Source: a virus (taxonomy: Duplodnaviria > Caudoviricetes). From it: a DNA stretch of 64,000 nucleotides. The notes under the pieces are model-generated. The model had not been told where the DNA came from and searched no databases. It saw nothing but the letters and a program-made list of their open reading frames with translations. Where the stretch lies: IMG/VR virus record IMGVR_UViG_3300043468_001158; one strand, given 5' to 3'. Position numbers and translations under genes: made by a program. Below are positions 3,993-51,400 of this stretch, in pieces (the stretch's first letter is position 1; the number at the start of each line of letters is the position of its first letter).

Positions 3993-4020
3993 TTTACATC
4001 TGACATTGATGTTGTATAAT
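3993..4020 (+). promoter_or_regulatory. Early sigma70-type promoter
   Basis: TTTACA-N16-TATAAT, followed by AGACACATGTTCAAACAAA and preceded by CTTCACAAAAAT (near-identical context at 10876-10948). Confidence 0.8.
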
Positions 4021-4049
4021 AGACACATGTTCAAACAAATGTAGAGTGA

Positions 4050-4232
4050 ATGAAGATGAACGCACAACACCTATTGAACTTCCTACTTGCCGCTGCTAAT
4101 GCAGGTGTCAATCTTCGTGAATTTGAAGTTATGACTCGTTCAACTACTTATGATGGTTTAGGTCAAGGTGAAGACCTTGAAACCTATCCAGAACAAGTTG
4201 AACTTGATGAAGACTATTTGGTTTTTAGATAA
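4050..4232 (+). CDS. Hypothetical protein
   Basis: First ORF after the early promoter. Confidence 0.5.
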   Translation: MKMNAQHLLNFLLAAANAGVNLREFEVMTRSTTYDGLGQGEDLETYPEQVELDEDYLVFR

Positions 4233-4495
4233 TGGTAGCTTCAGGGTTTGGGTTTAGATTTGAAGGAACAGTAGTCACCAATGAAAAGACTGGTGATAGT
4301 GTTCAAGTAGGACGAACCTTTTCCCGTTCAAACCATAAACAAAAAGAACTAGCAATCAAAATCCTTCGTGCTCGTCAATGGGCACGAGAAAACGGTTATG
4401 GACCATCTGAAGAAATCGTAGCAAACTATGAAAACCCAGATGATGAACCATTTCCACACCACCAACCCGATTATAGAGATAGGCCTTTGCCATGA
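4232..4495 (+). CDS. Hypothetical protein
   Basis: 87-aa ORF whose stop overlaps the RNA ligase start. Confidence 0.55.
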   Translation: MVASGFGFRFEGTVVTNEKTGDSVQVGRTFSRSNHKQKELAIKILRARQWARENGYGPSEEIVANYENPDDEPFPHHQPDYRDRPLP

Positions 4496-5595
4496 CGATG
4501 ATGCACTTTCCAATTATCACTCACATTGATGAACTACGAGAAAAAGTAGAACACTTACCTGAAATCCGCTTTGCATTACAAGAAAATGGCACTACTGTTG
4601 TTTGTGCTATGATTTCTGACAGTGATACTTATTCTGGCGATGCTGGTCCTTGGGCTCGTGAATGCCGTGGTATCGTTTTTGATGCACGAGGCAAATTGAT
4701 TGCTCGTCCAATTCACAAGTTCTTCAATGTTGGCGAACGTCCTGACACTCATCATCAAGTATTGCCTTGGAATGCTACAGTTCGCAAAATGGACAAACGT
4801 GATGGTTCTGTCATCAATCCTGTTATCGTGAATGGCGCGATGAAGTTCAAATCCAAGAAGTCATTTACTTCTGAGCGAGCAGTCCAAGCTGAACAATTTG
4901 CATCACTAAACGACAGAAGATTTAGCTGGGAAATGTTATCAAATGGCTTTACGCCAACATTTGAATTGACTTCTCCTTATGCTCGTATTGTCATGAAGTA
5001 TCCTACTAGCAAATTGACTTTGTTACATGTTCGTGAAAATACTACTGGTCGATACTTAGACAAAATGAGCTTGATGACTTTAGCTGAAGAGTTTCAAATT
5101 GACTTAGTCAGTGAATACTCTCCAACAAATTGGACTTGGGCTGAAGACAAAGCTTATCTTGAATCTGTTGAAGGTATTGAAGGCTATGTGTATCAGTTTG
5201 AAAATGGAGACATGGTCAAAGCAAAGTCTAAATGGTATCTTGACCGTCATCATGCAATGACTGCACTAACTTATCGCAATGTAGCAGAGCTGGTTGTTGC
5301 TGAAGGTATTGACGATTTGAAGTCTCACATTGTAGAAATGGGCGAACCTGATTTGCTTGAAAAGATTGAACATATCGAACATGAAATCACTCGTCAAGTT
5401 TCTGAAATGGCTGACTTTGTAGAAACGATTGTTCGAAATGAACGTCATCTTGAACGTAAAGAGTTTGCTATGAAGTTCAAAGAACTACCTGGCTTTGGAT
5501 TACTTATGAAAGCTTATGAAGGCAAAGAACCTAACTACTTAGAGTTCTATGCCCGTCATCATTTGAAAAATGATTGGGAAGTGTTAACTCTTTAA
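4492..5595 (+). CDS. rnlA: RNA ligase 1 (T4 RnlA family)
   Basis: ECRGIVFD, HKFFNVGE, motif I KRDGS, FELTSP..RIV..Y, EG.EGYV and KAKS.WY match Rnl1 motifs. Confidence 0.85.
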   Translation: MTMMHFPIITHIDELREKVEHLPEIRFALQENGTTVVCAMISDSDTYSGDAGPWARECRGIVFDARGKLIARPIHKFFNVGERPDTHHQVLPWNATVRKMDKRDGSVINPVIVNGAMKFKSKKSFTSERAVQAEQFASLNDRRFSWEMLSNGFTPTFELTSPYARIVMKYPTSKLTLLHVRENTTGRYLDKMSLMTLAEEFQIDLVSEYSPTNWTWAEDKAYLESVEGIEGYVYQFENGDMVKAKSKWYLDRHHAMTALTYRNVAELVVAEGIDDLKSHIVEMGEPDLLEKIEHIEHEITRQVSEMADFVETIVRNERHLERKEFAMKFKELPGFGLLMKAYEGKEPNYLEFYARHHLKNDWEVLTL

Positions 5596-6353
5596 TTTTC
5601 TACTGATAAGCTGGCGTCATCTAGATTTTTGACATAGTTGTCTAACTTATCAAGAAATCCATTATTACGAATAGTTTTCCATGCAAGATTTTCAACACTA
5701 AACTCGCCCGAGTTTTTCTCAAGACCGCTCTGACGTAATCGTTTGATGCGGTCTTTTAGTATCTGCACACTATCACGGTCAGTTACTTTATCATCTATCA
5801 ATGAAGTAATTTGGTCCATGATTTCACCCGCTTTAGACTTTACTGAAGTATCATCATATGTCGGTGGAACCGGATTACCAAACGATGGTTGCTTTATCCA
5901 CTTTTTCTTTCTAACACTGTAAATGCCAGCAGCAACAAGTTTATCGCCTTCAGGTTGTGCGTATAGTTCTACTGGATAACCATGAATTTTGATATCATGA
6001 TCTTTATTCCACAAGTTCTTCTTAGCTTTGAAGCAATCTTCTATGAAACTTCCAGGACAATCTGGACATGCTTTCTTTTCATTGACTATCAAATGCAAAT
6101 CAATGTCTGAAAGTTTTGAATAGTTGAAAGAACAATTCGAACCAGTGATAATGATATCTGATACTGAACTTGATGGGATTGACAAGAATTCGATAAACTC
6201 TTGAGCAATTCTTTCAAGTGCTTCTGCAACTCGTTCATTAAGTTTATTCTGTTCCCATAACTTTGGGTTCAATGTATCATGATATTCAAGATGTGTTTTA
6301 ATTTTAGCATAATCTTGCTTTTCATGAAGATATTGTTTGAAAGAAGTTCCCAC
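5592..6353 (-). CDS. Pol-beta superfamily nucleotidyltransferase
   Basis: IIITGSNCSFNYSKLSDIDLHL (GS..DxD) plus a third acidic strand PVELY. N-terminus MGTSFKQYLHE. Confidence 0.75.
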   Translation of the reverse strand: MGTSFKQYLHEKQDYAKIKTHLEYHDTLNPKLWEQNKLNERVAEALERIAQEFIEFLSIPSSSVSDIIITGSNCSFNYSKLSDIDLHLIVNEKKACPDCPGSFIEDCFKAKKNLWNKDHDIKIHGYPVELYAQPEGDKLVAAGIYSVRKKKWIKQPSFGNPVPPTYDDTSVKSKAGEIMDQITSLIDDKVTDRDSVQILKDRIKRLRQSGLEKNSGEFSVENLAWKTIRNNGFLDKLDNYVKNLDDASLSVEN

Positions 6354-6397
6354 TTGTATTAGTTCTCCACATTGAACATTACTTATAATAGTAATGC

Positions 6398-6405
6398 TAT
6401 TTATA
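6398..6405 (-). promoter_or_regulatory. T4-type late promoter motif (TATAAATA)
   Basis: 45 bp upstream of the nucleotidyltransferase start. Confidence 0.6.
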
Positions 6406-6416
6406 CTATAACTAAT

Positions 6417-6671
6417 TTAGAAATATGAAATCTCATTTGGAACTAATTTAGATTGAATCAATTCATCAAGTTTCTCGATAGCCTCAACAAACTGTTTTGC
6501 TCCAATGTTCCCCTTACTATGAAGGAATTCCCATCTATCATATAAGATGTTCTTTTGTGCAATCAAGTCATCTATTGATAACTCAGGCCACTGTTCGCGA
6601 GGAATGATTGACTTCTTCTCTTGTGTAATGTCAAGTACATCAGGAGGTTGTTGATTTAATAAAGTGTTCAT
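6417..6671 (-). CDS. Hypothetical protein
   Basis: 84-aa ORF with a late motif upstream. Confidence 0.55.
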   Translation of the reverse strand: MNTLLNQQPPDVLDITQEKKSIIPREQWPELSIDDLIAQKNILYDRWEFLHSKGNIGAKQFVEAIEKLDELIQSKLVPNEISYF

Positions 6672-6700
6672 ATGATTATGTAAAGTGTGTAATAATAAAA

Positions 6701-6708
6701 TATTTATG
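6701..6708 (-). promoter_or_regulatory. T4-type late promoter motif (CATAAATA)
   Basis: 30 bp upstream of the ATG at 6671. Confidence 0.5.
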
Positions 6709-6738
6709 AACTACATAAAAGAAGACTATCATCTACAT

Positions 6739-6786
6739 GGGAGAGAAATCTGCATATATATAATACCCTTAGTCTGTCAGTTTTTT
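6739..6786 (+). repeat. Dispersed non-coding repeat, block A (inverted copy at 57749-57795)
   Basis: GGGAGAGA...ATACCCTTAGTCTGTCAGTTTTT matches the reverse complement of 57749-57795. Confidence 0.9.
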
Positions 6787-6941
6787 CTTCCACATAAATG
6801 TCATAAAAATGACATATTTTAGTATTTCCTCCACATAAGAAAAACATTGTTCAATTAATTTTATAAGTTTTTGAAGAAATCATCATTTTTCTTCAAAAAT
6901 TGCCGAGTGATTAGTCATGGAAAATGATGCATTTGAAAAAC

Positions 6942-7019
6942 AGTATATAAATCAATAAGTTACGAAGATAATGATAAATAAAAACAGTAATAAAATCAAC
7001 TACTTAGAAAAAGACAAAC
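6942..7019 (+). repeat. Dispersed non-coding repeat, block B, with two IHF-consensus sites (inverted copy at 57834-57911)
   Basis: 73/78 identical to the reverse complement of 57834-57911. AATCAATAAGTTA (6950-6962) and AATCAACTACTTA (6994-7006) fit WATCAANNNNTTR. Confidence 0.95.
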
Positions 7020-7056
7020 TTCTGGTTTGTCTAAATATCTACATGTCAAAACACCA

Positions 7057-7085
7057 TTTACATTGCTACATACATAGAGTATAAT
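7057..7085 (+). promoter_or_regulatory. Early sigma70-type promoter
   Basis: TTTACA-N17-TATAAT (AGAGTATAAT), upstream of the RBS GAGGA and ATG 7116. Confidence 0.8.
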
Positions 7086-7115
7086 TACTTCAATCAATTT
7101 ACATAGAGGATTTTT

Positions 7116-7424
7116 ATGAGTCAAAAAACAGTCTTAGTTCTAAAGTTAGCGAATGGTGATGAAGTTGTTGGCCAACATATCAATGGTCCGCAAGATGTTA
7201 TAACACTTAGACGTCCGTTACGATTGGCACTTGTTCGTGACCCATCAACTGGGCAACCTGGTAAAGCACTGATGGAATGGATAATGTTAGCTCCTGAAAC
7301 TGAAGAAGTGAGTGTGTATGTGAACCAATTGCTTGTTGCACCAATACGAGCTTCTAAAGAACTTGCTGATACTTGGTTGGAACAAACATCAGGTTTCATA
7401 TTGACAACCCAATTGAATGGATAA
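7116..7424 (+). CDS. Putative Sm/LSm-like fold protein
   Basis: VLKLANGDEVVG...ITLRRPL...LMEWI pattern resembles the Sm-like proteins of T4-like myoviruses (from memory, unverified). Confidence 0.5.
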   Translation: MSQKTVLVLKLANGDEVVGQHINGPQDVITLRRPLRLALVRDPSTGQPGKALMEWIMLAPETEEVSVYVNQLLVAPIRASKELADTWLEQTSGFILTTQLNG

Positions 7425-7426
7425 TC

Positions 7427-7738
7427 ATGTCAAGCCATGACGATGAAGTTTGTTCAATTTGCGGAAGACTTCTTGGGGATGTGATGGTAGATGAACATCA
7501 TCTAATTCCCAAGACTTTCAAAGGTAAAGAAACAATAACACTTCATAAAGTGTGTCATCGAATGATACATGCTACTTTTTCTGAAAGAGAACTTCAAAAG
7601 TACTATCATACAATTGAACGACTTCTTTCAGATGAAAAGATGCAGCGATTTGTTGAATGGGTAAAGAAAAAGCCGTTAGACTTCTACATAAGTATCGATG
7701 ATACTGTTGAACGTAAATCAAAAAGACGAGGAAAATAA
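7427..7738 (+). CDS. Small HNH endonuclease-like protein
   Basis: CSICGR..DEHHLIPK..G..TI.LH..CHRMIH motif. Start moved to ATG 7427. Confidence 0.7.
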   Translation: MSSHDDEVCSICGRLLGDVMVDEHHLIPKTFKGKETITLHKVCHRMIHATFSERELQKYYHTIERLLSDEKMQRFVEWVKKKPLDFYISIDDTVERKSKRRGK

Positions 7739-7739
7739 A

Positions 7740-8534
7740 ATGGGTGCAATAAAAGGTAAAATCTATAGACCAGCATTAATTGCGGTTCCAAATATTTTGA
7801 CTAGACTCAATGATGATTATCGAGAGCATTGGCCATATAAGATAATTCAAATTGGTCAGGCAAATGTTTATAGTACTCGCCGCGACATATTCTTGAGTAA
7901 GAATATGGATATGATAGGTTTTTCATTTGCGAATGATTCGCATATTTTTGTATATGATAAAAAATCATCTGATGGTAGAGTTGAAATTACAGTAAACAGC
8001 CTAAAATATGTTATCTTTCCTAAGCAATTAGAAAAAGATACTACGTCGGAAACTAAAAGAATCCTTGACCAAGGAATGTCGAGATTTATTCATACTACTT
8101 ATTTGGATTTAGAACAAATCCAAGCACAGACTTCTGTTGAACTGAAGGCAGGTAAATTGTCATTTTCATTAGAAGTCGGTAAAGAATATCAAACTGCTAA
8201 TAACGGTCGTGTCAAACTAATTGCTTTTGAAGATAAAAGCGATTTTGCTACAGAACCAATGTTTATTGGCCTGATAAAACGAAATGATGGAGAACCCACA
8301 AATGTTGCGTATAGATGTGATATCAATGGAAAAACTTTATCTCATGGCGGTAATAGTCATTATGATATTGTTGAACCAAAACGAAGATATAGAGTCTATA
8401 CTTATGCATGGTTAGGATTAGAATCTAAAAAAGTCTATACTTCAAGTGTGATTGATTCAGATGTAATTCCACGTTTTCTTGAAGATAACCCAAGAGTAAA
8501 GTATGAAGTTTCAATTGGGACATTCGAGCTCTAA
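7740..8534 (+). CDS. Hypothetical protein (C-terminal domain paralogous to 11517-12233)
   Basis: Shared motif EY...NG.R.K...F.G...G..LSHG...YDIV. Start moved to ATG 7740. Confidence 0.6.
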   Translation: MGAIKGKIYRPALIAVPNILTRLNDDYREHWPYKIIQIGQANVYSTRRDIFLSKNMDMIGFSFANDSHIFVYDKKSSDGRVEITVNSLKYVIFPKQLEKDTTSETKRILDQGMSRFIHTTYLDLEQIQAQTSVELKAGKLSFSLEVGKEYQTANNGRVKLIAFEDKSDFATEPMFIGLIKRNDGEPTNVAYRCDINGKTLSHGGNSHYDIVEPKRRYRVYTYAWLGLESKKVYTSSVIDSDVIPRFLEDNPRVKYEVSIGTFEL

Positions 8535-8538
8535 TCAT

Positions 8539-8796
8539 ATGTCATCTTTTGACGAAATCTTTCAAAATGCTTCTGAAGATAGAGCAGCATATGCAGTGTT
8601 TGCGGTTCAACGATTAGTTCTATTGAACCACTATCTTGCTCAATATGCAAATATTGGCGTCAAATTTTACTGTGATATGACTAACGATGAAGAATGTCAA
8701 TTCTTTATGAATGTTCTGATATATATGCACCAAGAAAAAGTGATGGACTTATCTGACATTCTCCCCTTTATTGACCCAGAAATTTTCTATAAATAG
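8539..8796 (+). CDS. Hypothetical protein
   Basis: In-frame ATG 5 bp after the previous stop. Confidence 0.5.
   Translation: MSSFDEIFQNASEDRAAYAVFAVQRLVLLNHYLAQYANIGVKFYCDMTNDEECQFFMNVLIYMHQEKVMDLSDILPFIDPEIFYK
8788..8795 (+). promoter_or_regulatory. T4-type late promoter motif (TATAAATA)
   Basis: Upstream of the hsp20 leader. Confidence 0.55.
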
Positions 8797-8913
8797 ATTT
8801 GATAGAACATTGAACAAGGGTTCTTTATTCTGTCAATCACTTAGCTTCTGACTATTGTAGTAGAAGCGAATTTTTAGAAATATCTCAAACGCTTATTATA
8901 AGGAGAGAGAATT

Positions 8914-9372
8914 ATGAGTAACATCAATGCGCCTATTCGTGGCATCCCTACAAACTTTTCAAAACAGTTGTCACAATACCTTGTTGGATTTGATGACATC
9001 TTTGATACATTTGAAAAGGTTTTGAACAAATCTATCAACACCACTCCAAACTTCCCACCACGCAACATCATTCGATTAGATGAAAATCATTTCCGTATTG
9101 AATACGCAGTTGCTGGTTTTGCACGAGAAGATTTGACAGTTAGTGTTGAACGTGAATCGTTGCTTGTCGTAGAAGGCAAGAAAGTCAATAAAACTGAACT
9201 TGACCCTGCTTACTACTTGCATCGTGGAATTGGCTTACGTGATTTTCGTAATGAAATCACTATCCCAGAAGGCTCAGAACTGGCAGTCCAACTTATCAAT
9301 GGATTACTAATCGTTGATGTGTCTAAACCTGTCAAACTTGAACCAGAACCAAAGCTTATTGCAATAGGCTAA
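8914..9372 (+). CDS. hsp20: Small heat-shock protein (Hsp20/IbpA family)
   Basis: FPP.NI...HFRIEYAVAGF...YLHRGIG.RDF...L.NGLL.V alpha-crystallin motifs and a strong AAGGAG RBS. Confidence 0.9.
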   Translation: MSNINAPIRGIPTNFSKQLSQYLVGFDDIFDTFEKVLNKSINTTPNFPPRNIIRLDENHFRIEYAVAGFAREDLTVSVERESLLVVEGKKVNKTELDPAYYLHRGIGLRDFRNEITIPEGSELAVQLINGLLIVDVSKPVKLEPEPKLIAIG

Positions 9373-9385
9373 TCGTGTCATAGAG

Positions 9386-9409
9386 ATGGAGGGGAGAAAT
9401 CCCCTCCAT
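9386..9409 (+). terminator. GC-rich hairpin after hsp20
   Basis: ATGGAGGGGA-GAAA-TCCCCTCCAT, 10-bp stem with a weak U-tract. Confidence 0.65.
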
Positions 9410-9439
9410 TCACTCACTTCTTCATGAAATACTCTCTAT

Positions 9440-9652
9440 ATGTCATACAACGTTATTGATGTCGTCAAAGACGAGCTAAAAGGCACTGCAGATAAACTAA
9501 CCAAACAAGAACAAAAACTTCGCCTTGATGTTTGTAATGAATGCGAACATAAGACAAAGCTTACTCGACAATGTGGCCTATGCGGGTGTTTTCTTGACCT
9601 CAAAACGAAATACCGTTCTTCTGAATGCGATGCCGGGAAGTGGTCCATATAG
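9440..9652 (+). CDS. Small Cys-rich (zinc-binding) protein, DUF6171-like
   Basis: RLDVCNEC...RQCGLCGCF..K......C.AGKW. Confidence 0.6.
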   Translation: MSYNVIDVVKDELKGTADKLTKQEQKLRLDVCNECEHKTKLTRQCGLCGCFLDLKTKYRSSECDAGKWSI

Positions 9653-9788
9653 AGACCATAAAGCATCCTTATGTAAGCGGTATGGACCAAAGTTCAATTC
9701 TGATAACCAGTTATCACTTCTAACCATTTACATTGCTTCTAAGTCTAGATACAATAGACCCATATTCTGATGAAAGAGGAGAAATACG

Positions 9789-9950
9789 ATGAATGCAGTT
9801 ATGTTTATGATTAGCGCACAAATAGCTATAACTATGGTTGATAAATTTTTTCCACATATGCTCATATGGGCAATTTGGATAATTGTAATTCTTGCATTGG
9901 TCCCGCTTGTACGTTTAGCTCTTGCTACAATAATATGCAAACATTTCTAA
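9789..9950 (+). CDS. Small membrane protein (53 aa, not in the ORF track)
   Basis: RBS GAGGAG upstream. Sequence MNAVMFMISAQIAITMVDKFFPHMLIWAIWIIVILALVPLVRLALATIICKHF. Confidence 0.45.
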   Translation: MNAVMFMISAQIAITMVDKFFPHMLIWAIWIIVILALVPLVRLALATIICKHF

Positions 9951-10459
9951 GTGAAACAACTTTTAGCGGTTCTGCTGAAGTTCTTGACAAACGTCGGCTC
10001 AATAGTCAGTTCAAAGAAGCTCGTCAAATCATGGACGTTCTTTTTGCTAAACCTCGTGAAGATGGTAAAAAGATTGCATGGCAAAATCATCCTGCTGTGT
10101 TGATGTGGAAAGGACATGAATACTACTTATGGTTGTACATCAAACGAATGAGAGAAGAATGTATCTATCGTGGCATCAAAGTCGAAAAGAACACTGACGC
10201 TGTCAATAAGCATATCCATCTAATTGACTCGCCGGATATGTGTCAAGACCCTCCTTTGTGGTGGTCTGATGAAACATTACGAAATCGAGTGATTATGACT
10301 CATCGTGCTCGACTGTTTGTAAAAGACCCGGTTCATTATGCAAAATATGAACAATGGGTAGAACCCGCTAAAGAACTTGTATGCTGTGTTGGAAAGTGCA
10401 ATTACTTTTGGCCAAGTCATCACGAACGAAATCTTTCTATGGGGAAAGCAAATGTATAA
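9935..10459 (+). CDS. Pyrimidine-dimer DNA glycosylase-like protein (DenV/MSMEG_6728-like)
   Basis: MQTFL...SAEVLD.RRL..Q..EA.QI...W.NHPAVLMW.G...PPLW...H.A.L..KDP.HY. Start moved to ATG 9935. Confidence 0.8.
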   Translation: MQTFLSETTFSGSAEVLDKRRLNSQFKEARQIMDVLFAKPREDGKKIAWQNHPAVLMWKGHEYYLWLYIKRMREECIYRGIKVEKNTDAVNKHIHLIDSPDMCQDPPLWWSDETLRNRVIMTHRARLFVKDPVHYAKYEQWVEPAKELVCCVGKCNYFWPSHHERNLSMGKANV

Positions 10460-10868
10460 AGACAACGATGGTAAAGAAGTATTCGAAAAAGGTGATAAAG
10501 TCATTGGCTCAACATGGGATATGTTTGTTGAACAACCTGATGTTAAAGGTATCTTTTCGCACTATGACCCAGACGATAACAAGCCTCATTTATATTCAAA
10601 GAATGACATTGAGATTTCAGTGTATGGACAAACAAGAAAGTTTGACCAAGTTCGAGCTGATAAGACAATGTTCGTGAATGCAAAACAAATCAAACGCTTG
10701 ATTGAACAAATTGAAGCTAATGGTGTTGATTTGGAAACTGTGAATATTCAATTGGCGATACGAATTCCAGGTCATCGAATTGAAATGATTGATGGTGCTC
10801 AAGTCTTTGCTCAATACGCATCGTATGGAGTTCGTGACGAAGGTGTTGTTCTCAAATTAGAAAACTGA
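10452..10868 (+). CDS. Hypothetical protein
   Basis: Start MYKDNDG overlaps the previous stop. Confidence 0.55.
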   Translation: MYKDNDGKEVFEKGDKVIGSTWDMFVEQPDVKGIFSHYDPDDNKPHLYSKNDIEISVYGQTRKFDQVRADKTMFVNAKQIKRLIEQIEANGVDLETVNIQLAIRIPGHRIEMIDGAQVFAQYASYGVRDEGVVLKLEN

Positions 10869-10900
10869 TAAGTACTTCACAAAAATTGACATAGTGGCTA

Positions 10901-10928
10901 TTTACATCTAAAGTAGAGAGTTTATAAT
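10901..10928 (+). promoter_or_regulatory. Early sigma70-type promoter
   Basis: TTTACA-N16-TATAAT-AGACACATATTCAAACAAA, with CTTCACAAAAAT upstream. Confidence 0.8.
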
Positions 10929-10977
10929 AGACACATATTCAAACAAACCACACAATGATGAGAGAGAGGAACCTACG

Positions 10978-11391
10978 ATGACTAACCAAATCAAAGAATT
11001 CGACAAACAAAACCTGAAAACCTTACGTAGTGATATTGAAGCTGCATTGGCTGAAGTTGCCAAAAAACATGGTATCACTTTAGGTGTTGGCAACATCTCA
11101 TTTAGAGCTGATTCATTTTCAGCTAAAATCACTGCTGCAACTGTTGCTGAAGGTGATGATAGCGATGGTGTTATGTCTGGTAAACAAATGAAATGGGCTC
11201 AAGACTTCAAATCACATGCTTCGTTATTCGGTATGAAACATACTGACTTAGGTAAAACCGTGACGATTGGTGCTTTTACATATGTGATCGTTGGTGCTCG
11301 CCCAAGAGCAAAACAAAATATAGTATTGCAAAATCCAAATGGCGGCTTCAATGTTCAAGAAGCTTCAGTTGTTGCAAAATTTCTGAAATAA
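10978..11391 (+). CDS. Conserved-looking phage hypothetical protein
   Basis: Strong RBS GAGGA and first gene after the early promoter. Confidence 0.7.
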   Translation: MTNQIKEFDKQNLKTLRSDIEAALAEVAKKHGITLGVGNISFRADSFSAKITAATVAEGDDSDGVMSGKQMKWAQDFKSHASLFGMKHTDLGKTVTIGAFTYVIVGARPRAKQNIVLQNPNGGFNVQEASVVAKFLK

Positions 11392-11403
11392 GGAGATAGT
11401 ATT

Positions 11404-11505
11404 ATGGCACCTACAGAAGTCATTATTAGAGTTATTGAATTGGGTGTAATGCTATGCGTCTTTATGGCATTGGTTTTGGTAATAGCTGAAAACGCTACGA
11501 AGTAG
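11404..11505 (+). CDS. Possible 33-aa membrane peptide
   Basis: RBS AGGAG upstream. Hydrophobic core VIELGVMLCVFMALVLVI. Confidence 0.35.
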   Translation: MAPTEVIIRVIELGVMLCVFMALVLVIAENATK

Positions 11506-11516
11506 GAGAAGTTCAA

Positions 11517-12233
11517 ATGAGCAAAGTTATTACAATATATCAAAAGCCTTTAGACAAACCAGTTAGACGTTATCTTCTTGGCAATGGAATATTTACTAAA
11601 TGTATCACATCTATCAAAATTGAAGACGATCATGACAATAAACATTATTCTATAGACAATCTCAATCGAACTTTGTTTATTGACCAAGATGATAAAAGTT
11701 TTTGGTATAAAAATCGTAATGACAACGGTGCATCCAAGTATGCAATAACTAAACCTAAATATGGACGTCCATATCAAACTCTAAATCTCGGTGGTGCAAC
11801 ACCTATTCGGATATATGAAGACGACATCATTATGTTTGAAAACGTTATTCCTTCGCCATTAGGACCTACAATCAAAGGAATTCTATTGAAAGTCGACGAA
11901 GAATACAAGTTGCGAAATGGTATGAGGATGAAGATTGTTGCATGCATATCTGATAAAGATTATACTGATGATGAAGTTTTTGTTGGAGTGTATAAGATTG
12001 ACAGATTGAATACAATTCGTTATAGCAGTTCAGGCACACTGCTTTCACACGGTAATGATAAAAACTATGATATTGTTGATTTGTGGAGAGAACAAGATGT
12101 TTGGATTGTAGTAGTTCCAGTAGCAAGTCCAACTTGTTTCGAATCCAAAACATTTCTGACTAAAGAAGCTGCTGAAAAATATCAAAAACTTCGTGGTGCT
12201 GGTTCTATCACGAAAGTAACTATGGAGAAATAA
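11517..12233 (+). CDS. Hypothetical protein (C-terminal domain paralogous to 7740-8534)
   Basis: EYKLRNGMRMKIVA...FVG...SGTLLSHGNDKNYDIV. Confidence 0.6.
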   Translation: MSKVITIYQKPLDKPVRRYLLGNGIFTKCITSIKIEDDHDNKHYSIDNLNRTLFIDQDDKSFWYKNRNDNGASKYAITKPKYGRPYQTLNLGGATPIRIYEDDIIMFENVIPSPLGPTIKGILLKVDEEYKLRNGMRMKIVACISDKDYTDDEVFVGVYKIDRLNTIRYSSSGTLLSHGNDKNYDIVDLWREQDVWIVVVPVASPTCFESKTFLTKEAAEKYQKLRGAGSITKVTMEK

Positions 12234-12235
12234 CA

Positions 12236-13435
12236 ATGAGTAACTTTGAAGTCCTTGTACAAAAAATCTTTATCTCTGAGCATCCAAATGCGGATGCTCT
12301 TGAAATCGGCCACATTGGCGACCCTGAAGGCAATCAAGTTGTATGTCGTAAAGGTCTCTATAAGACTGGCGATTTAGTCGCATACATCGGTGAAAATTCT
12401 GTCGTCCCTGAATGGGTACTGAAGAAGTACGGATTTTGGAACGAAGAAAAAGACAAAGGCTTGCTGGCCGGTTCGAAAGGTGACCGTGTCAAAGCTGTCA
12501 AACTTCGCGATGCTTTTAGTCTCGGGATTTGCATTCCTGTTGTACTAATGGATGATGTTCCTGGTACTAATAACGCATATGCTATTAGCGATGAAGACGG
12601 CGAAGTCTGTATCGTTGAAGAAGGCCAAGATGTTGCCGAAATCTTAGGTGTCACTAAGTATGAGCCACCAATCCCTGTGCATATGTCTGGTGAAGTGTTC
12701 AATGCTGGTCAGGATGTAGGTGTCAATTACGACATTGAAGACCTTGCTAAATATCCACATGTTCTGATTGAAGACGAAGAAGTTCAAATGACTGTCAAGT
12801 TGCACGGTACTAACTGCTCTGTGACTTGTGTGGTTGGCGATGGTCTAAATCGTCATAACATCAATGAATGGACTGAAGTTGGTGCTGGAGCTATTGCTGT
12901 TGGTTCTAAAGGCTTGAGTGCTCAAGGTCTGTTCTTCAAGAACAATGAAGCTAATGCTGGTAATTTGTACTTGAATGGTACTCGTCAATACTGGGAAGCT
13001 ATTACTAACTATGCATTAGTAATGGGTACCGATGGAAACTTTGAATGTATCACTGTCGTTGGCGAAGTCTTTGGTGGTGCTGTTCAAACCGGTTTTGACT
13101 ATGGTCTAAAAGCTCCAGAGTTCCGAGTGTTTGATGTCTATATTGGCTATCGCGGTCGTGGTTTCTGGTTGGACGATAAGGTACTTGATAACTTTTGCAA
13201 TTTGACTGGTATTACTCGAGTGCCTCTTGTGTATCGTGGTCCATACTCTAGAGAGTTAGCACGTAAGCTTGCTAATGACCCTGAAAGTGCATTGCCAAAT
13301 GTCAAGCATGTTCGTGAAGGTGTGGTTATCAAACCTGTTGTAGAACGTCGAGACCCAGTGCTTGGTCGTGTAGTAGTGAAGACTCGTTCTGATGCTTACA
13401 TGACTCGCAAAGGCAATCATACTGATTACAACTGA
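12236..13435 (+). CDS. RNA ligase, DRB0094/Rnl2-like family with N-terminal OB-type domain
   Basis: HPNADALE...VV.RKG.YK.GDLV.YIGENSVVP, motif I KLHGTN, GEVFG, F.VFDV, REGVVIKP. Confidence 0.85.
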   Translation: MSNFEVLVQKIFISEHPNADALEIGHIGDPEGNQVVCRKGLYKTGDLVAYIGENSVVPEWVLKKYGFWNEEKDKGLLAGSKGDRVKAVKLRDAFSLGICIPVVLMDDVPGTNNAYAISDEDGEVCIVEEGQDVAEILGVTKYEPPIPVHMSGEVFNAGQDVGVNYDIEDLAKYPHVLIEDEEVQMTVKLHGTNCSVTCVVGDGLNRHNINEWTEVGAGAIAVGSKGLSAQGLFFKNNEANAGNLYLNGTRQYWEAITNYALVMGTDGNFECITVVGEVFGGAVQTGFDYGLKAPEFRVFDVYIGYRGRGFWLDDKVLDNFCNLTGITRVPLVYRGPYSRELARKLANDPESALPNVKHVREGVVIKPVVERRDPVLGRVVVKTRSDAYMTRKGNHTDYN

Positions 13436-15930: not shown

Positions 15931-17208
15931 ATGGCCGCTTCTCCTTTTACCCCTAAACAAGCAACGTCAGATTTTGTTCAACAACAGATGAAAGATAATC
16001 AGTTCGTAATCAATAAACCACAAACACCAACAACTCCTGTAGTCAAGACATTTGCTCCAGTGACAGCACCAACGGTGCCAATATCTAATGTGCAACAAGC
16101 ATTCAATCCAGTGTCTCCAAAAGCAATTGCAGAAACGGGTGCTTCATCACATCGAGTAGTCAATTTGCTTTCAACGTTTGACAGTTCAACAGGTATCTTG
16201 GATTTTGGTAAAGATGTCATGGCGACTATTTCTTCTAAGTCTGACGAAATGCTCAAAGAAGTCAAAGATGCTGATGTTGATTTTGTCGAAACCCAAATGC
16301 GAAGCATTTTGACAATGGCCAAATCTTTACATCTTCCAAAAGCTGGTGACCATTCAAAAGATGGTGCCGGCGGTTGGCTGACTGGTTTAGTTGCAAAAGT
16401 CAAAGAAAACTTCGTTGATACTAAAGAGCAATTGTTATCTGAATTCAACAATGTATCGACCCAAATGGACCGAGTGATTGGTGAAGTCGATCAAGCAAAC
16501 CGTCGTATCATTGACAAAGTCAAAGGTTTGCAGACGATGTATCAATCAAACTTGCAAGACTACAAGAACCTGGACCAATTGATAAAGGATGCTACTGAAG
16601 CATACAATATCAAAGTCGCTGAATATGACAAGTTGCAAGCTCAAGTGACTGATGCTCTTCAAGCTCAAACTTTACAACGTATGGGTAGTAATCTTGACAG
16701 GTTAGACAAGAAGATTGCTAACATGAAAAGCTTTCAATTGATGTGCTTGCAAGATGCTCCTAATCTGGCTCAAATGGAAGACAATGCGGTTACGTTGCTT
16801 GAAAAGTTTGATACCATCAAGACAATGACTATCCCACTTTGGAAGAAGCAGATTAGGATGTTTATCGACGGGCAAGAACTCAATCGTGCGGCAAAGCTTG
16901 CATCTGCTGTTGATGATGCAAACAATGCTATGATTTCTGCGAACTCGACTGCTAACAAGCAGAATGCAATCGAAACTACTCGATTGAATCAACGTGGCAT
17001 TGTCGATATGCAGACTGCAGAACAGGTTCATGAGAACTTACTTGCTACACTAGAAGAAGTCTCTAACATCAATGCAGCTGGCCGTAAGCAACGTATCGAA
17101 AGTTCTGACCGTATGGATGAAATGAAACGACTGTATGCGTCTATTGCATCAGGTCAAACATCTGTATCGGATGCACGTGGGAAAGTGTTACCGTCTTCAC
17201 AAAACTAA
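15931..17208 (+). CDS. telA: Toxic anion resistance protein (TelA family)
   Basis: Coiled-coil, EF..VSTQMD.V, MTIPLWKKQI, A.LA.AV.DA.N..I..NS...KQ.AIET......GIVD..T pattern, in a Ter context. Confidence 0.8.
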   Translation: MAASPFTPKQATSDFVQQQMKDNQFVINKPQTPTTPVVKTFAPVTAPTVPISNVQQAFNPVSPKAIAETGASSHRVVNLLSTFDSSTGILDFGKDVMATISSKSDEMLKEVKDADVDFVETQMRSILTMAKSLHLPKAGDHSKDGAGGWLTGLVAKVKENFVDTKEQLLSEFNNVSTQMDRVIGEVDQANRRIIDKVKGLQTMYQSNLQDYKNLDQLIKDATEAYNIKVAEYDKLQAQVTDALQAQTLQRMGSNLDRLDKKIANMKSFQLMCLQDAPNLAQMEDNAVTLLEKFDTIKTMTIPLWKKQIRMFIDGQELNRAAKLASAVDDANNAMISANSTANKQNAIETTRLNQRGIVDMQTAEQVHENLLATLEEVSNINAAGRKQRIESSDRMDEMKRLYASIASGQTSVSDARGKVLPSSQN

Positions 17209-17211
17209 CCA

Positions 17212-17240
17212 TTTACTTTTGCCATCTTTTGTAGTATAAT
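17212..17240 (+). promoter_or_regulatory. Early sigma70-type promoter
   Basis: TTTACT-N17-TATAAT-AGACATAT, with CTTCACAAAA upstream. Confidence 0.7.
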
Positions 17241-17246
17241 AGACAT

Positions 17247-17606
17247 ATGAAAGTCAAACTATCAGGTAAGCAATACAAAGAATTCATGAAGGACAATGTC
17301 TTTTGGCCAGAAGGTTTATGGGTTGAAGAAGACATTCTTTCGGTTGATGATGAACCTGTTAGAGAAATTGATGAAGAGGATCTTAGCGATAGTGCAATCA
17401 TAACTATTGAAGATGGCTTTTTGAACTGTGATGATAATGCATCAGATAAAGCAAAAGCATGGCAGTTCAAATCATATCAACCGTTTATCAAGAAATGGTT
17501 ACAACAACAAACAAATCAAACACTGGTGATAGATGTTCCCAAGGAACAATACGATGAAGTTCTAACATATCTAAAAACTCATAAATGCAAAATCATACTA
17601 AAATAG
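17247..17606 (+). CDS. Hypothetical acidic protein
   Basis: 119-aa ORF directly after the promoter. Confidence 0.6.
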   Translation: MKVKLSGKQYKEFMKDNVFWPEGLWVEEDILSVDDEPVREIDEEDLSDSAIITIEDGFLNCDDNASDKAKAWQFKSYQPFIKKWLQQQTNQTLVIDVPKEQYDEVLTYLKTHKCKIILK

Positions 17607-27674: not shown

Positions 27675-28253
27675 ATGAAAGCTTCTGAAATTGAAAGACT
27701 GATTGGGGAATCTGGCTTAGCACCCTTTCTTTCTCTCAATTCAAACGGTCGAGTTGATTGTGAAAAAGTAGATTTGAAATTTTCATCTATCAATTGGCGA
27801 TATTTAGTAGAAGATAATGAGCTAAAGTTCCCATTTGGTATAGTTGTCGGTTTTGATGTTTCTAATTGTAATTTGAAGTCAATGAAGAACTTTCCACTTG
27901 AATGTTGTGGTGATTTTAGAGCAAGACATAATGAATTGACTTCGATTAAAGGTATTCCTCCACGAGCTCAAATGATTGATTTACGATACAATCCAATCAC
28001 TTCATTTGAAGGTATCGGAACTAAGGTCAAATCATGCAAATCATTGTGGATGCCTGCAATTGAATCTCATATGCTTGGTGTTCTACAAATCAAAGACTTA
28101 CGAAGTTTATACCTTCAAACTATTGATATGTCAATGGATACTTATAGAGCATTTCAAATTGTTCTAAAGTATATTGACCCTAAAAATCGAAACATTGTAC
28201 AGTGTCAACGAGAACTAATTGAAAATGATTTGGACGAGTACGCTGAATTCTAA
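27675..28253 (+). CDS. Leucine-rich-repeat-like protein (paralog 2)
   Basis: FDVSNCNLKSM, FRARHNELTSI, IDLRYNPITSFEGI, with the same C-terminus. Start moved to ATG 27675. Confidence 0.65.
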   Translation: MKASEIERLIGESGLAPFLSLNSNGRVDCEKVDLKFSSINWRYLVEDNELKFPFGIVVGFDVSNCNLKSMKNFPLECCGDFRARHNELTSIKGIPPRAQMIDLRYNPITSFEGIGTKVKSCKSLWMPAIESHMLGVLQIKDLRSLYLQTIDMSMDTYRAFQIVLKYIDPKNRNIVQCQRELIENDLDEYAEF

Positions 28254-29947
28254 GAAGCCATGTATTGGTCTAATTGTTGTTCTGACGGACCAGATTTTCT
28301 GAAATGATGAAGAAAACCTGAACCACCGGGAGTTCCTTTCCTCATACCTTCTTGACCTTGACCATGTGACATATACATGAACTCTGCACGGGTTAAAGAT
28401 GAGTACCCTTGAGTATATGCATTATTACAAACTTGTCCTTTATTAGCACCGGCGATAGTTCCATTTGCATGAAAACTATCGTAACCTTTACCTTCATACT
28501 TTACCATTCTTAACATTGCTTTAGTAGCAAGTTCAACATTGCATCGTTGTTCACACGTAGGCGAAGCTATTCCTATTTCAGCATAAAATTTCCCAGCCGT
28601 TGCAGGCTGCATTTGAAATAAACCAAGAGCATGTGATTCAGGGTTTTTCTTATGCGCATCAGCATACTGGTTATAGGTACTTTCTAAGAATGCAATCTTA
28701 ACCATGTAGCGTGCTTCTTCTTGTGTTGCTCCGTTTGCTAAAGCTACGTCTTTGATTTGTTTTGCTATTTGATTTTGCGGAGGTGGAGTCCATCCTGGTG
28801 GCATACAATCACCACCCGGCATTACTCTTCCCGGTTTTACCCCAACAACCTTATCTTCAGCATTAGCGGGTTCAGTCAATAGTGGAATTGGCTTACAGTC
28901 TTCAGCTGCCTGAACTTTTTCTTGGGTAATACCTTTGTCTGTGTTCTGAACAGTTTGCACATTTGTAGGTGGAACGTTAGGGTCTGTTGCTCCTTGTTCT
29001 GCTCCAGCTGCAATTTTGATTTTGCCATTGATATACTTCATTGGGTCATCATGAGTAGTACCACCAAGTTTTACTTCAAAGTGTAAATGATTTCCGCGTG
29101 AAGCTCCAGTATTACCTTCATGGCCAATTACATCGCCTGCTTTTACAGTTTGGTCTTTTTCAACATATATTTCCCTAAGATGACCGTATAGAGTTGTTGC
29201 CAATAATTTGCCTGATGAATTGACATGCTTTATCAATATCATATTACCATAACTTTTATCGTTGGGCGCACGTGGTTTAACGACCTGCTGAACAACACCA
29301 TCAGCAGCAGCTAGGATTTTACCTTTACCACCGGTTGCTAAATCAACCCCTTTATGAAACTGTCTTTCGTGTGTGTCTCCTCTAATTCGCCACCCATAAC
29401 CTGATGTCATTACTGCACTGGGATTAGGATGTATCAATCGAAGGTCATCATCGTTACACTTCTTTGGTACTATCTGATATGTCTTCTCATCAATGGTGTT
29501 CTTGTTGGGGTCACTTGCTACAATTTCCAGCTCTGGAATATCCGCTTGTGCTCGTGCTTTGAGTGTTGCAGTAAAAGTCTTCTTTTCAAACTCGTCTTTG
29601 ACGGTTCCGCTCAAATGACCGGTTGAGTTATCATAAGTTAGACCTAAGTCAGCTGGAGTTTTGACATTACCTTGTTCATCTTTGATAACAAAGTCCCAAG
29701 TAACTGGGTGACTGCCATCAGACATTTTGAACGTCGTATCAACTTTCATCTTACAATCAACTGGAATTGAACCTGTAACGATGTGATCTTTTGGCGCAGT
29801 TGAGCCAGGTTCTGGTTGGGGAGGCTGTGGTCCTATACGTTTGACAAAGCATTCATCAGTCTCACCTTTGAGCTGAATTGCCGGAACATCAGTCCATTCT
29901 CCATCTACATTTTCTGAAGCTTTAGCTCCTGAGCACCCACATCCCAT
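28250..29947 (-). CDS. Multidomain peptidoglycan hydrolase: Ig-like + M23 peptidase + SLT/lysozyme-like
   Basis: LGLTYDNSTGHLSGT (Ig-like); HKGVD, YGHL, HLHFEV (M23); IAFLEST...GLFQ (catalytic Glu of the SLT fold). Confidence 0.85.
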   Translation of the reverse strand: MGCGCSGAKASENVDGEWTDVPAIQLKGETDECFVKRIGPQPPQPEPGSTAPKDHIVTGSIPVDCKMKVDTTFKMSDGSHPVTWDFVIKDEQGNVKTPADLGLTYDNSTGHLSGTVKDEFEKKTFTATLKARAQADIPELEIVASDPNKNTIDEKTYQIVPKKCNDDDLRLIHPNPSAVMTSGYGWRIRGDTHERQFHKGVDLATGGKGKILAAADGVVQQVVKPRAPNDKSYGNMILIKHVNSSGKLLATTLYGHLREIYVEKDQTVKAGDVIGHEGNTGASRGNHLHFEVKLGGTTHDDPMKYINGKIKIAAGAEQGATDPNVPPTNVQTVQNTDKGITQEKVQAAEDCKPIPLLTEPANAEDKVVGVKPGRVMPGGDCMPPGWTPPPQNQIAKQIKDVALANGATQEEARYMVKIAFLESTYNQYADAHKKNPESHALGLFQMQPATAGKFYAEIGIASPTCEQRCNVELATKAMLRMVKYEGKGYDSFHANGTIAGANKGQVCNNAYTQGYSSLTRAEFMYMSHGQGQEGMRKGTPGGSGFLHHFRKSGPSEQQLDQYMAS

Positions 29948-48454: not shown

Positions 48455-51400
48455 CTGCGTTGTTTACAATAGTTTCTGGAGTAACGGTGATGATGCTATG
48501 AACTGAAAGTCTTGAAGTTTTGAAGATGTCAGTGAACTCATAGTTATTGGCAAGTGCATCATTTAGCACCTCAAAGAATAGTTCGTTGATATGTTGTGGC
48601 AAAGCATGTCTCCAGATATAGTCTAAAACTTGACGAGTAGAAGCCGGTGTCACGAACCAAGTTGATGATTGTGATAGGTCTAACCCGTTGATAGTTGCTG
48701 TAGTATTTATCCCGTTTAGATAAACTGAAGTTTTAGGATTTAGAATGCTATTAGTTAGTGAAGCAATAATCAATGAACGGTCAGCTAATACTTGGTCATC
48801 TCTAAAACCATAACGAGTTCTTGTACCATGTCTTTCATCATATAAGACTTTGTTCAATGCAGGTATTGCTTGACCTGCCAGGTTAGTACCGGCAGCAGAG
48901 TCAACAAGTTTGTTCCAAAGTGTAAGAGGTATCTTCATATCTTGTTGAGGTCTAATCAATGTCCATTCAGTATGAGAGTTCTTCAAATCAAGGTCTTGTG
49001 GGTTATCACGTAAGCTAAAGTCACGCGTAAAGCGAAGCTTATACGTATTATCCTTATTAACCATCATGTTCAATCCAGCAATCGTAATACCATGATAAGC
49101 GCCATCAAACAACTCTTGGAAAGTTAAGTAAGTAGAAGGTCCTTCACGAAGTAATTGAGCAGATTGCTGACAAGTCAATTGCTTATTACCTACAGGCACT
49201 GTCTTATCTTTTACCCAAAAGTAATAAGTATCGCCAGTGATATTACCAGAACTATCACGTGAAGGACGTATAACATATTGATAGTCTGACTTATATTGAG
49301 TTTGGATACTTGGGTCATCAGATACATCAGGGTCAAAAGCAAGTTCATCAGAAGTTGGTTCATAAGCAGACATAATAGCAACTACTTCATGTCCATGTGG
49401 AATAGCTTGAGTAGTTGAAATCAAAGTCCCGTTAGTTGAATAGAATGTACGAGGTTGGCTAATGCCATTCAAGTATAGACGTAATGTATTGTCCGCTATT
49501 CGGTTAGAAGAAGTAACTTGCAAGTCTAATGTATTACCACTTCCAAACTTACGAATGACTTCTTGTTGCAATAATATCCAATCACCCCAAACAGGATTGA
49601 ACTTTTCAACTGTGGTCCCGTCATTCAATACGAGTGGCTCTTTTTCATATGCAACAATTTCGTCAATCACTTGTCTTACCGAAGGCACTTCAACATAATC
49701 GCCATACACTGGAGTCCAACTATTATGTGGGTATTTGAGGTCGTTATCAAGTATCTCTTGGGTTGGAACATTGTAACCAATCCAACCGTATTCGTCAAGT
49801 ACAGTAGAAGTGCTATTCTCGATGCCAATAGAACCAGTAGATGCATCATACCCAATGACAACCATAGCACCAATAGTGCCAAGTTCATCTATGACTTGTT
49901 GAGCATCTACTCCACTAGCAAAGTAATCAGGATGTACATTCACATTGATAGTAATATGTCCAAGATTGAAGCTAAAAGTTTCTACAAGAGGTTGAATTGC
50001 TAAAGCAACCGAAGTCAAGGTATCAATAGCAAGTGATGATACGACTAATGATGAACCCGACGGTGTCGCTTGTATTAGTTTCAAGTAATAGGTATCATTA
50101 GTTGTATTAAGTTCTCCAGTTACTGAATATGTGCCAACTGAAGCAGTTGGGTTTTTCACAAAAGTGACTTCACTAAATGCATTGATGCCGGTCACTGTCA
50201 ATTTGTTATCATATGACACTGGCAAATTGATAGGTAACACATTGTCCAAAATCGAATGAGGGAACTGAATAAGTACTGTCACTGGAGCAACTTCTTTGAT
50301 TTCCAAGTTGAACAGTCCAACATCAGGAGATAAGACTTGTTGAAGGGCAACACTTATCTCAGCACCTGTCATAGTAGCGACAGCAGTTGTTGCTATCATC
50401 TTGATACCTAATTGAACGAAGTCAATTTCATAAGACCCGCCAACTTGACCACTATAGTCGTATAGTGGTTGGGTAACAGATAGAGACCCACCTGATGCTT
50501 GTTCAATAGCACGAATGTAATAAGTTGAACCAACTTGACTCCATTCAAATTCAATATGACCAATTGCTGCACCTTTGTAGTTCTTGTTATCAGACCAAAC
50601 AAACTGAATAACATCGAAGTAATTCCCGTCACCAGCACTTACGTGCATATCACCAGAATGATAACCATCACTTAATGTAAACGCGATTGGTCCGTTAAGT
50701 ATTGCTTCACCATAAGGTTTGCCACCTAAGAACCCGCTAAAATGCATACCTGGCACTAACCCGTATTGTGCAAAGCGACCTTTCTCTAACGAGACAAACG
50801 TTTCGCCAACACCTGGGCTATTCAATGTCAAACGAGTTGTTCCTGCTTTGAACAATTGAACATCTTGTGCTTCAGGTGGAGTTGGAACATATGACCATGC
50901 AATAGGTCTTGCTTCCCAAGTTCTTGTTCTTTTGTATGATTGCTTACGAGCAGCTTTACCAGTTTTCTTATCTTCAAGTGCAACGTCTGCTGACAATTGG
51001 TCGATTGCAGAACGAGCATCATATTCACTTGGAGCTATTGAAGACTTAACCCATTCGTAGACATTGATTGACGAGTATTCAGCCATGCTACCCCAACGGC
51101 CAAGTCTTTCTTCAAAAGTTGGAAAGATTTGCTTGTCATGGTAAGGCACATATTCAAGTAGTGTTTTGTCCCACCAAGTTCTTCCTACCTCTCTGTCACC
51201 CCATGATTTTTGAGGGTCAAAGTTAGGGTTCTTAACAGTCAAAGTTGAATAGTTGTAGAATGCAGGGTCTTTTTCCGATACAACATTGATGACTTCCATT
51301 GCAATAGCAGTATGATTATCAAATGCTGGATGCCAAGTAGTAATGTCTTCAATCAAAGCTCTATCAACATAGTCAAACAGTTTGATTGGTGAGAACTTTG

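Follow-up and report, generated by a model that had tools for sequence, protein, structure and literature searches.

What does a nucleotidyltransferase do behind an N-terminus that resembles the head-packaging tag of phage T4? The question is raised by the IMG/VR virus record IMGVR_UViG_3300043468_001158, a stretch of 64,000 nucleotides (nt; the whole stretch analyzed, hereafter the window) from an uncultured freshwater T4-like phage, which carries on its minus strand (5592..6353) a gene for a nucleotidyltransferase (NTase) of 253 amino acids (aa) with a Pol-beta fold and a C-terminal helical bundle. Phage T4 is the textbook case: proteins that begin with a 10-residue tag are loaded into its head and later injected. 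Its known head cargo consists of small proteins that bind DNA, inhibitors of restriction, and a single ADP-ribosyltransferase. On balance, we favor the explanation that the protein is a phage-specific NTase of the Pol-beta superfamily that is loaded into the capsid, delivered with the DNA, and acts in the new host. T4-type tagged head cargo is known as such, and the new element is an uncharacterized phage-only NTase as cargo. A packaged enzyme had already been proposed in an earlier reading of the DNA by itself (the sequence-only reading), and the proposal, each testable part of which held up, gains independent though indirect support here from a leader that appears portable, a gp21-type protease in relatives, late-type promoter boxes, and the virion proteome of the cyanophage S-CREM2.

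A phage-only nucleotidyltransferase family

The assignment of the protein to the Pol-beta fold, made by the sequence-only reading, was confirmed by its motifs, by profile matches, and by its predicted structure. Among the 39 homologs compared, no change was seen at the active-site residues G71, D83, D85, and E129 (motifs G71-S72, D83xD85, and E129), and at least 90% keep S72. The sequence runs I-T-G71-S72 and then S-D83-I-D85-L-H, with 10 residues between the motifs, and fits the pattern hG[GS]...[DE]h[DE]h, while E129, the putative third catalytic position, lies within V-E-L-Y-A-Q on a predicted strand (residues 126-134 of the AlphaFold model). The Pfam model NTP_transf_2 (PF01909) gives the NTase 17.8 bits, below the cut-off of 21, and matches 27 of the 39 homologs (best E 2e-7). 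In the AlphaFold model (predicted local distance difference test, pLDDT, 89), a short N-terminal helix (residues 5-12, pLDDT ~69) is followed by a conserved coil with H-D-x-L-N-P-x-L-W, the NTase core (~32-165), and a helical bundle (166-249) rich in conserved Lys/Arg. The core aligns to the minimal NTase 2rff with Z 7.0 over 102 residues (root-mean-square deviation, rmsd, 4.0 Å). The three motifs, together with profile and fold, place the protein in the Pol-beta nucleotidyltransferase superfamily.

The family corresponds to phrog_36119 (E 3e-63), annotated as being of unknown function. It is common: 243 proteins matched at an E value of 1e-3 or below, and no fewer than 584 IMG/VR loci were counted. 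Its clusters in the ESM Atlas are 98-100% viral, and the isolates with a homolog are cluster C T4-like Synechococcus phages, Caulobacter phage Cr30, the Maribacter phages Molly and Colly, and Lak megaphages. The family is essentially phage-only and lacks a close solved structure: searches of solved structures returned chance-level monellin rows with the single sequence and weak minimal-NTase and MNT rows (E of at least 0.02) with a profile. Comparison of the NTase with NCBIfam and PADLOC gave nothing meaningful, the sole PADLOC match, to PDC-S09, being weak (E 0.031). Where homologs are longer, the additional domains mostly match nothing or a DUF (DUF6321, DUF5872, and DUF6934, all with weak scores).

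A leader resembling the T4 capsid-targeting tag

The open reading frame (ORF) of the NTase opens at a GTG, the earliest start codon past the preceding stop, and reads MGTSFKQYLHEK. This start is supported by the ATG and TTG starts of homologs, which fall at the equivalent residue; homologs that are 59-93% identical begin MKTTFKEYLAE and MVLSFKDFLLE. The first 11 codons (6321..6353, minus strand) encode MGTSFKQYLHE, as had been noted from the sequence, with a predicted protease site after E11. The capsid-targeting tag of T4 is MKTYQEFIAE (PMC8442874), in which residues 4 and 7 serve targeting and residues 8 and 10 processing (PMC9026906). The likeness of the two N-termini pointed out by the sequence-only reading holds at exactly these positions, as F5 and Y8 (targeting) and L9 and E11 (processing) of the NTase correspond to Y4, F7, I8, and E10 of T4 with an offset of one residue. 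Like T4 tagged head cargo, the NTase thus carries an N-terminal leader of ~10 residues that has aromatics in the targeting positions and ends in aliphatic-x-Glu. Unlike the T4 tag, its leader is one residue longer, and its cleavage and ejection are predictions.

Conservation of the leader, on which the earlier reading had staked itself, was found: among the 39 homologs, E11 is at least 90% conserved, F5 and L9 are kept in the close clade, and the x positions of the consensus x-x-x-F-K-x-x-L-x-E vary freely. One homolog (in L057; L-numbered loci are stretches fetched around homologs of the NTase) opens with MHNFSEFIAE, to be compared with MKTYQEFIAE of T4. Besides, the leader is not confined to the NTase. 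In the loci of relatives, the leader pattern was found at 67 of 7318 candidate starts vs 5 of 3435 in reversed controls. Tagged ORFs encoding unrelated proteins, the NTase included, number six each in L076 and L081 and five each in L079 and L061, and L038 is also multi-tagged; the leaders in L076 include MISFKQYLLE, MKSFRQYLLE, MRSFKEYITE, and MKSFKHYLLE. The tagged ORFs, which follow the pattern M-[KLIR]-x-F-x-x-[YF]-[LI]-x-E, form clusters (L076:2301-8209; L081:4698-8297 and 16248-17411; L079:88-4760; L061:1269-11575; L038:17525-20623) that look like whole 'cargo islands'. Most leader-bearing neighbors match no Pfam family; among the members of the clusters are a protein of 2120 aa (L061:2185-8547), a member of the GP88 family, and a fusion of NTase and lysozyme (L076:6674-8209). 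Homologs of DUF6267 occur both with the leader (MRANEFLRE...) and without it, which marks the leader as an add-on. As far as these sequences tell, the leader is a portable module carried by several unrelated proteins in relatives.

The machinery that would process such a leader is also encoded by phages with the family. A strict form of the leader, searched as a DNA pattern, has 5 matches in each of two near-complete contigs of ~150 kb vs 0-1 in the reversed control, and both contigs encode a T4 gp21-type protease. The prohead protease family PF03420 (T4 gp21 family) was found in all six near-complete or complete family-carrying genomes checked. The head genes of the source phage lie outside the 64-kb window, and the gp21-type protease is known from these family-carrying relatives.

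A different short motif was observed in the Maribacter phage Molly, where the NTase homolog (MNLKTLVE) and its upstream neighbor (MKTGKIKTLIE) have in common a sequence ending in L-[VI]-E. The region of this homolog is Molly_1 MT732451.1 13131-14368 (L093:983-2220), with a NUDIX gene two genes upstream, and Molly_1 shows a weak Peptidase_S77 match (E 1.6e-7).

Late-type transcription signals

The late motif reported upstream of the NTase by the sequence-only reading is present as a TATAAATA box of the T4 late-promoter type at 6398..6405 (minus strand), 44 nt 5' of the GTG, where it occupies the short gap between a conserved 84-aa gene and the NTase. A GGAG ribosome-binding site lies at 6365..6368 (minus strand), 11 nt 5' of the GTG, and the relative in L006 has a GGAG 7 nt 5' of its TTG start. 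The box is also found in relatives, as cATAAATA in L006 (7-mer from -53) and as TATAAATA in L008 (from -37). All three minus-strand copies of TATAAATA in the window are located 44-60 nt 5' of minus-strand gene starts. Across the loci, (T)ATAAATA occurs within 100 nt 5' of 19 of the 41 leader ORFs vs 232 of the 1579 others (odds ratio 5.0, p 2e-6). The NTase is like T4 tagged cargo in its late-type promoter, as it is in the gp21-type protease of relatives and in the presence of a homolog in virions (see below).

In many leader ORFs (L018, L054, L061, L074, L076, L079, and L081), the ATAAATA box begins only 11-14 nt before the start codon. Such a spacing would leave almost no 5' untranslated region, and these ORFs may be expressed from leaderless or near-leaderless late mRNAs.

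Tagged proteins in virions of S-CREM2

The proteome of CsCl-purified virions of S-CREM2, a cluster C T4-like cyanophage, was determined on an Orbitrap (PMC10665884), and ORF156, listed as a 'hypothetical protein', was detected with 6 unique peptides and 15.2% coverage (PMC10665884 Table 3). By tblastn, ORF156 (126012-126725) is a homolog of the NTase, with 43% identity over 94% of the protein, and belongs to the same family. The S-CREM2 genome encodes a T4-type protease, and ORF156 is located beside other virion-detected non-structural proteins. Unlike the NTase of the source phage, ORF156 sits among same-strand replication genes and overlaps the gene upstream.

The strict leader pattern has four matches in the whole S-CREM2 genome (OR473000.1), of which three are gene starts, i.e., those of ORF6 (SAM hydrolase; 5052-5081, minus strand), ORF136 (107301-107330), and ORF154 (cytidylyltransferase; 124608-124637), and the fourth is internal to nrdA. 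ORF6, ORF136, and ORF154 are all in the virion proteome (3/3, p ~0.013 given the 52 of 221 ORFs listed), which likely has low contamination because no replication proteins are listed. In the genome of S-CRM01 (HQ615693.1), starts with the strict leader occur on the minus strand at 100675-100704 and 103944-103973, belonging to g127 and the Ser/Thr kinase g130. In cluster C cyanophages, the leader thus seems to be a predictor of virion-associated enzymes. The S-CREM2 paper (PMC10665884) is silent on this point and mentions neither targeting sequences nor an NTase fold.

A proposed course of packaging and delivery

Based on these observations, we propose a theoretical scheme for the packaging of the NTase. 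Late in infection, the gene would be transcribed from its own TATAAATA box. The 11-residue leader, M-x-T-x-F-K-x-Y-L-x-E, would dock the protein on the prohead scaffolding core as the T4 tag does, a step suggested by the resemblance to that tag, by the sharing of the leader, and by the proteome data on the homolog. A gp21-type prohead protease would cut the protein after E11, and the mature enzyme of ~242 aa would remain in the head with the DNA and go into the next host cell. Since a relative of it was detected in purified virus particles, the NTase is probably injected together with the DNA. In the new host, the G-S / DxD / E site would move a nucleotide from a nucleoside triphosphate to a target hydroxyl before phage gene expression. 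T4 Alt is a precedent for a packaged host-modifying enzyme; unlike T4 cargo, the protein described here is a Pol-beta NTase of an uncharacterized family that is restricted to phages but absent from the T-even ones.

Genomic context and candidate substrates

The NTase is convergent with a gene for an RNA ligase of the Rnl1 type (367 aa; 4492..5595, plus strand; PF09511 E 6e-24, T4_Rnl1_C E 3.5e-5, phrog_562 E 2e-71), which carries no leader. The overlap of the two stops and the ligase type, both given by the sequence-only reading, held on inspection: the stop codons share TTAA at 5592..5595, and PF09511 and phrog_562 identify Rnl1. A gene for Rnl1 also lies near the NTase in L004 and L006/L007, with other genes between, and is absent from the vicinity in L008/L009 and most loci. 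The link between Rnl1 and the NTase is local synteny of the closest relatives only.

In more distant lineages, another ligase-like gene is found near the NTase. Genes for DUF6267 proteins of ~380-400 aa, in which an H-L-E-D-L segment is followed by a conserved K-W-D-G (the hallmark of enzymes of the ligase type), lie within 10 kb of the NTase in 17 loci, often 1.3-1.9 kb upstream (L024:8127-9341; L049:7401-8546; L014:5103-6251; 14 further loci); some of these proteins have an MRAxEFLxE leader, and others begin right at the conserved segment. A cytidylyltransferase-like gene is located one or two genes 5' of the NTase homolog in S-CREM2 and Cr30, and probably also upstream in S-CRM01, where g127 clusters with S-CREM2 ORF154. 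Domains of the CTP_transf_like, NUDIX, and Zeta_toxin-type kinase families recur as fusions to the NTase or as its neighbors. In viral ESM Atlas clusters, the NTase fold is fused to NUDIX (719 aa), a Zeta_toxin-type kinase (987 aa), Peptidase_M23 (456 aa), and CTP_transf_like (381 aa), and lysozyme fusions are also among the structural neighbors.

The Rnl1, DUF6267, and cytidylyltransferase neighbors hint at work on nucleic-acid ends. If a target has to be guessed, a nucleic-acid 3' end comes first, with repair or tailing of RNA or tRNA feeding the phage ligases, and a host protein, which would be nucleotidylated (AMPylation), comes second. Action on nucleic-acid ends is favored because of the ligase and cytidylyltransferase neighbors and the repertoire of fusion domains. 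The task would be similar to the one proposed for RlaP (PMC7824862), except that a delivered enzyme would perform it.

This repertoire recalls the polyvalent proteins (Iyer et al. 2017, PMC5512222), which are thought to be injected with phage DNA and contain domains of the Pol-beta NTase, peptidase, and nucleotide-directed kinds. A similarity is that structural neighbors of the NTase carry Peptidase_M23, lysozyme, NUDIX, Zeta_toxin, and CTP_transf_like as fused domains. Unlike polyvalent proteins, the NTase belongs to a single-domain family with a T4-type leader and is not multidomain, with no MuF or portal fusion.

Weighing the packaged-enzyme reading against alternatives

Several observations speak against packaging and delivery of the NTase, or against the substrate suggested for it. 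The TATAAATA sequence was seen 6 times in the window vs 5.4 times expected by chance, i.e., without enrichment, and no further leader-bearing ORF in the window is convincing. The virion support for the NTase comes through ORF156, which is only 43% identical and has a shortened leader (MKKLISE). The N-terminus of many distant homologs passes directly into the H-D-x-L-N-P motif, and some have no Glu, so that the leader segment could be part of the fold. The modeled structure appears to favor no substrate class, as its NTase matches are generic (Z of at most 7), and the proximity to ligase genes is limited to certain lineages and could stem from a common T4-like gene order.

The best of the alternatives builds on the same N-terminus. 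Here, the N-terminal helix would stay uncleaved as an integral element of a late enzyme of the cytoplasm that works in the producing cell, e.g., on phage nucleic acid or tRNA, and the likeness to the T4 tag would be convergence on an amphipathic helix. E11 and the H-D-x-L-N-P-x-L-W segment are indeed conserved together, many homologs have just 5-8 residues between the Glu and the H-D-x-L-N-P motif, the motif is internal in N-terminally extended homologs, and the AlphaFold model has a helix at 5-12. However, unrelated proteins beside the NTase in relatives open with the same leader, which is moreover present or absent among DUF6267 homologs, and the S-CREM2 homolog and the products of strict-leader genes were found in virions. 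The positions of F, L, and E are fixed while the x positions vary, as for a recognition and cleavage signal. We consider an integral helix unlikely.

A second alternative is an unpackaged partner of the RNA ligase, similar to RlaP, that would put back the nucleotides missing from cleaved tRNA ahead of sealing by Rnl1. Like the NTase, RlaP is a small Pol-beta NTase of large phages encoded near RNA ligase genes, and its family is co-distributed with RNA ligases in jumbo phages (PMC7824862). The tail-to-tail arrangement with Rnl1, its recurrence near Rnl1 in L004 and L006/L007, and the KxDG ligase-like gene near more distant relatives are in line with such a role. Nevertheless, the RlaP model PF10127 matched neither the NTase (E up to 1) nor the 39 homologs (E up to 0.1, 25 families listed), nor the NTase loci of five family-carrying genomes, and Cr30 holds both an NTase homolog and a separate RlaP (49103-49507). 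RlaP is not described as leader-bearing or packaged, Rnl1 is not near the NTase in L008/L009 and most loci, and the two genes would not be co-transcribed, being convergent and having different promoter types. An RlaP-like partner therefore appears quite improbable; RNA repair after injection, on the other hand, is compatible with a packaged NTase.

The sequence-only reading had suggested placing the protein by structure among the CCA-adding, MNT, cGAS-like, or AMPylase families, which did not succeed. Structure searches (Foldseek pdb, VIA wide, and VIA on the Foldseek matches) gave only generic NTase and helical-bundle rows (Z of at most 7.8) and assigned no subfamily; AadA, CdnE, TENT5, and MNT align to the model at Z 5.5-6.1. 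A CCA-adding enzyme was considered and rejected, as the NTase and its 39 homologs show no match in Pfam scans to PolyA_pol, which we take to be the model for the head domain of CCA-adding enzymes and poly(A) polymerases. The only poly(A)-polymerase-like rows were weak ones to MTPAP-like_central, in 16 of the 39 homologs (best E 0.0022). CCA-adding enzymes are also longer than the 253-aa NTase.

A small-molecule or antitoxin-type enzyme, i.e., an adenylyltransferase of the ANT/KNTase type or an MNT-like enzyme nucleotidylating a HEPN-type toxin, is very unlikely. The resemblance lies in the size (~250 aa) and the layout of an N-terminal NTase domain and a C-terminal helical domain, as in AadA / ANT(3'')(9) and ANT(4'). 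The alignment to AadA (4cs6) spans both domains (Z 6.1, 148 residues, rmsd 5.5 Å, model residues 36-237), MNT antitoxins align to the core (Z 5.5-5.6), and one database record labels a homolog an aminoglycoside nucleotidyltransferase. These Z scores, though, are of a size that the tool describes as common, and rows for CD-NTase, TENT5, and poly(A) polymerase (PAP) score equally well. The similarity to AadA is weak (Z ~6) and comes with no sequence match. The neighbors of the NTase are Rnl1 and an 84-aa protein matching no family, with no adjacent HEPN partner, and the family is phage-only. Lastly, a cGAS/CD-NTase-like enzyme making or decoying a nucleotide signal is hardly credible, since the leading Foldseek rows (CdnE and CdnD, E 3e-3, probability 0.87) and the alignments to CdnE and CdnG (Z 6.0-6.1) are offset by TM scores of 0.22-0.27 (CdnE 0.26) over just ~105 aligned residues, by a length ~50-80 residues below that of CD-NTases, and by the PADLOC search, in which no CD-NTase model matched and the weak PDC-S09 row stood by itself.

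Other features of the locus and the window

Immediately 5' of the NTase on the same strand lies the conserved 84-aa gene (6417..6671, minus strand), which carries no leader and is itself preceded, at ~29 nt, by a late-like cATAAATA box (6701..6708, minus strand). In L004 and L006, its homologs directly precede the NTase, and in L008 the homolog is nearby. The protein has the conserved pattern W..LS..EL..QK.IL.DR.EFL.SKG and matched nothing in Pfam, PHROG, NCBIfam, or PADLOC.

The operon of Rnl1 is preceded by a sigma-70-like promoter with 11/12 matches (3993-4020, plus strand), and it is solely from this promoter that we infer a putative early status for Rnl1. A second sigma-70-like promoter, also with 11/12 matches, lies at 7057-7085 (plus strand), both having TTTACA, a spacer of 16-17 nt, and TATAAT, and the two head plus-strand units that flank the minus-strand island of the NTase. 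There is no terminator between the convergent Rnl1 and NTase genes, and late NTase transcripts would enter Rnl1 antisense. Metatranscriptome contigs from four runs of one freshwater study cover Rnl1 and the NTase, with ends at 6328, 6369, and 6427, near the 5' end of the NTase. In one run, a contig over Rnl1 has a depth of 37.5 and ends at 5723, and pieces of the NTase have depths of 1.5-3.3; as the contigs come without strand, start, or timing and DNA carry-over is possible, they are taken only as a sign of the region in RNA libraries.

The window also includes T4-type genes, i.e., gp6-like and gp5-like baseplate genes, and very large fiber-like genes on the minus strand; by DNA similarity, positions 4000-11900 matched no known phage. 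Further along the plus strand are genes for Hsp20 (8914-9372; phrog_432 E 5e-27), a DenV-like pyrimidine-dimer glycosylase (9866-10459; PF03013 E 1e-15), and a second RNA ligase, of the DRB0094 type (12236-13435; TIGR02306 E 9e-54), 6 kb from Rnl1. An ORF of 238 aa without a family match (11517-12233) adjoins this second ligase. Among the ORFs scanned beside either RNA ligase, no RlaP, Pnk-like, or other end-healing enzyme was found. A 565-aa M23-type peptidase or endolysin-like protein is encoded at 28250-29947 (minus strand).

Implications

These results suggest that a recognizable T4 tag loads nucleotide-chemistry enzymes into heads across uncultured freshwater and marine T4-type phages, and phrog_36119, an abundant family of unknown function, would be such a head cargo. 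At the sequence level, the strict form of the tag is a simple rule that pointed to non-structural, virion-associated proteins in the published S-CREM2 proteome. More tentatively, and as a possibility that we rate well below packaging itself, the widespread, phage-only NTase family could be a 'first-strike' enzyme in T4-type heads, delivered with ligase-like DUF6267 and NMNAT-like cargo for the repair or modification of RNA or DNA ends before transcription or for the nucleotidylation of a host defense protein. If true, such phages would carry a pre-packaged counter-defense kit with a chemistry that injected phage proteins are not known to have. The target of the NTase, if found, would reveal what a phage needs in the first seconds of infection, before any of its genes are expressed.

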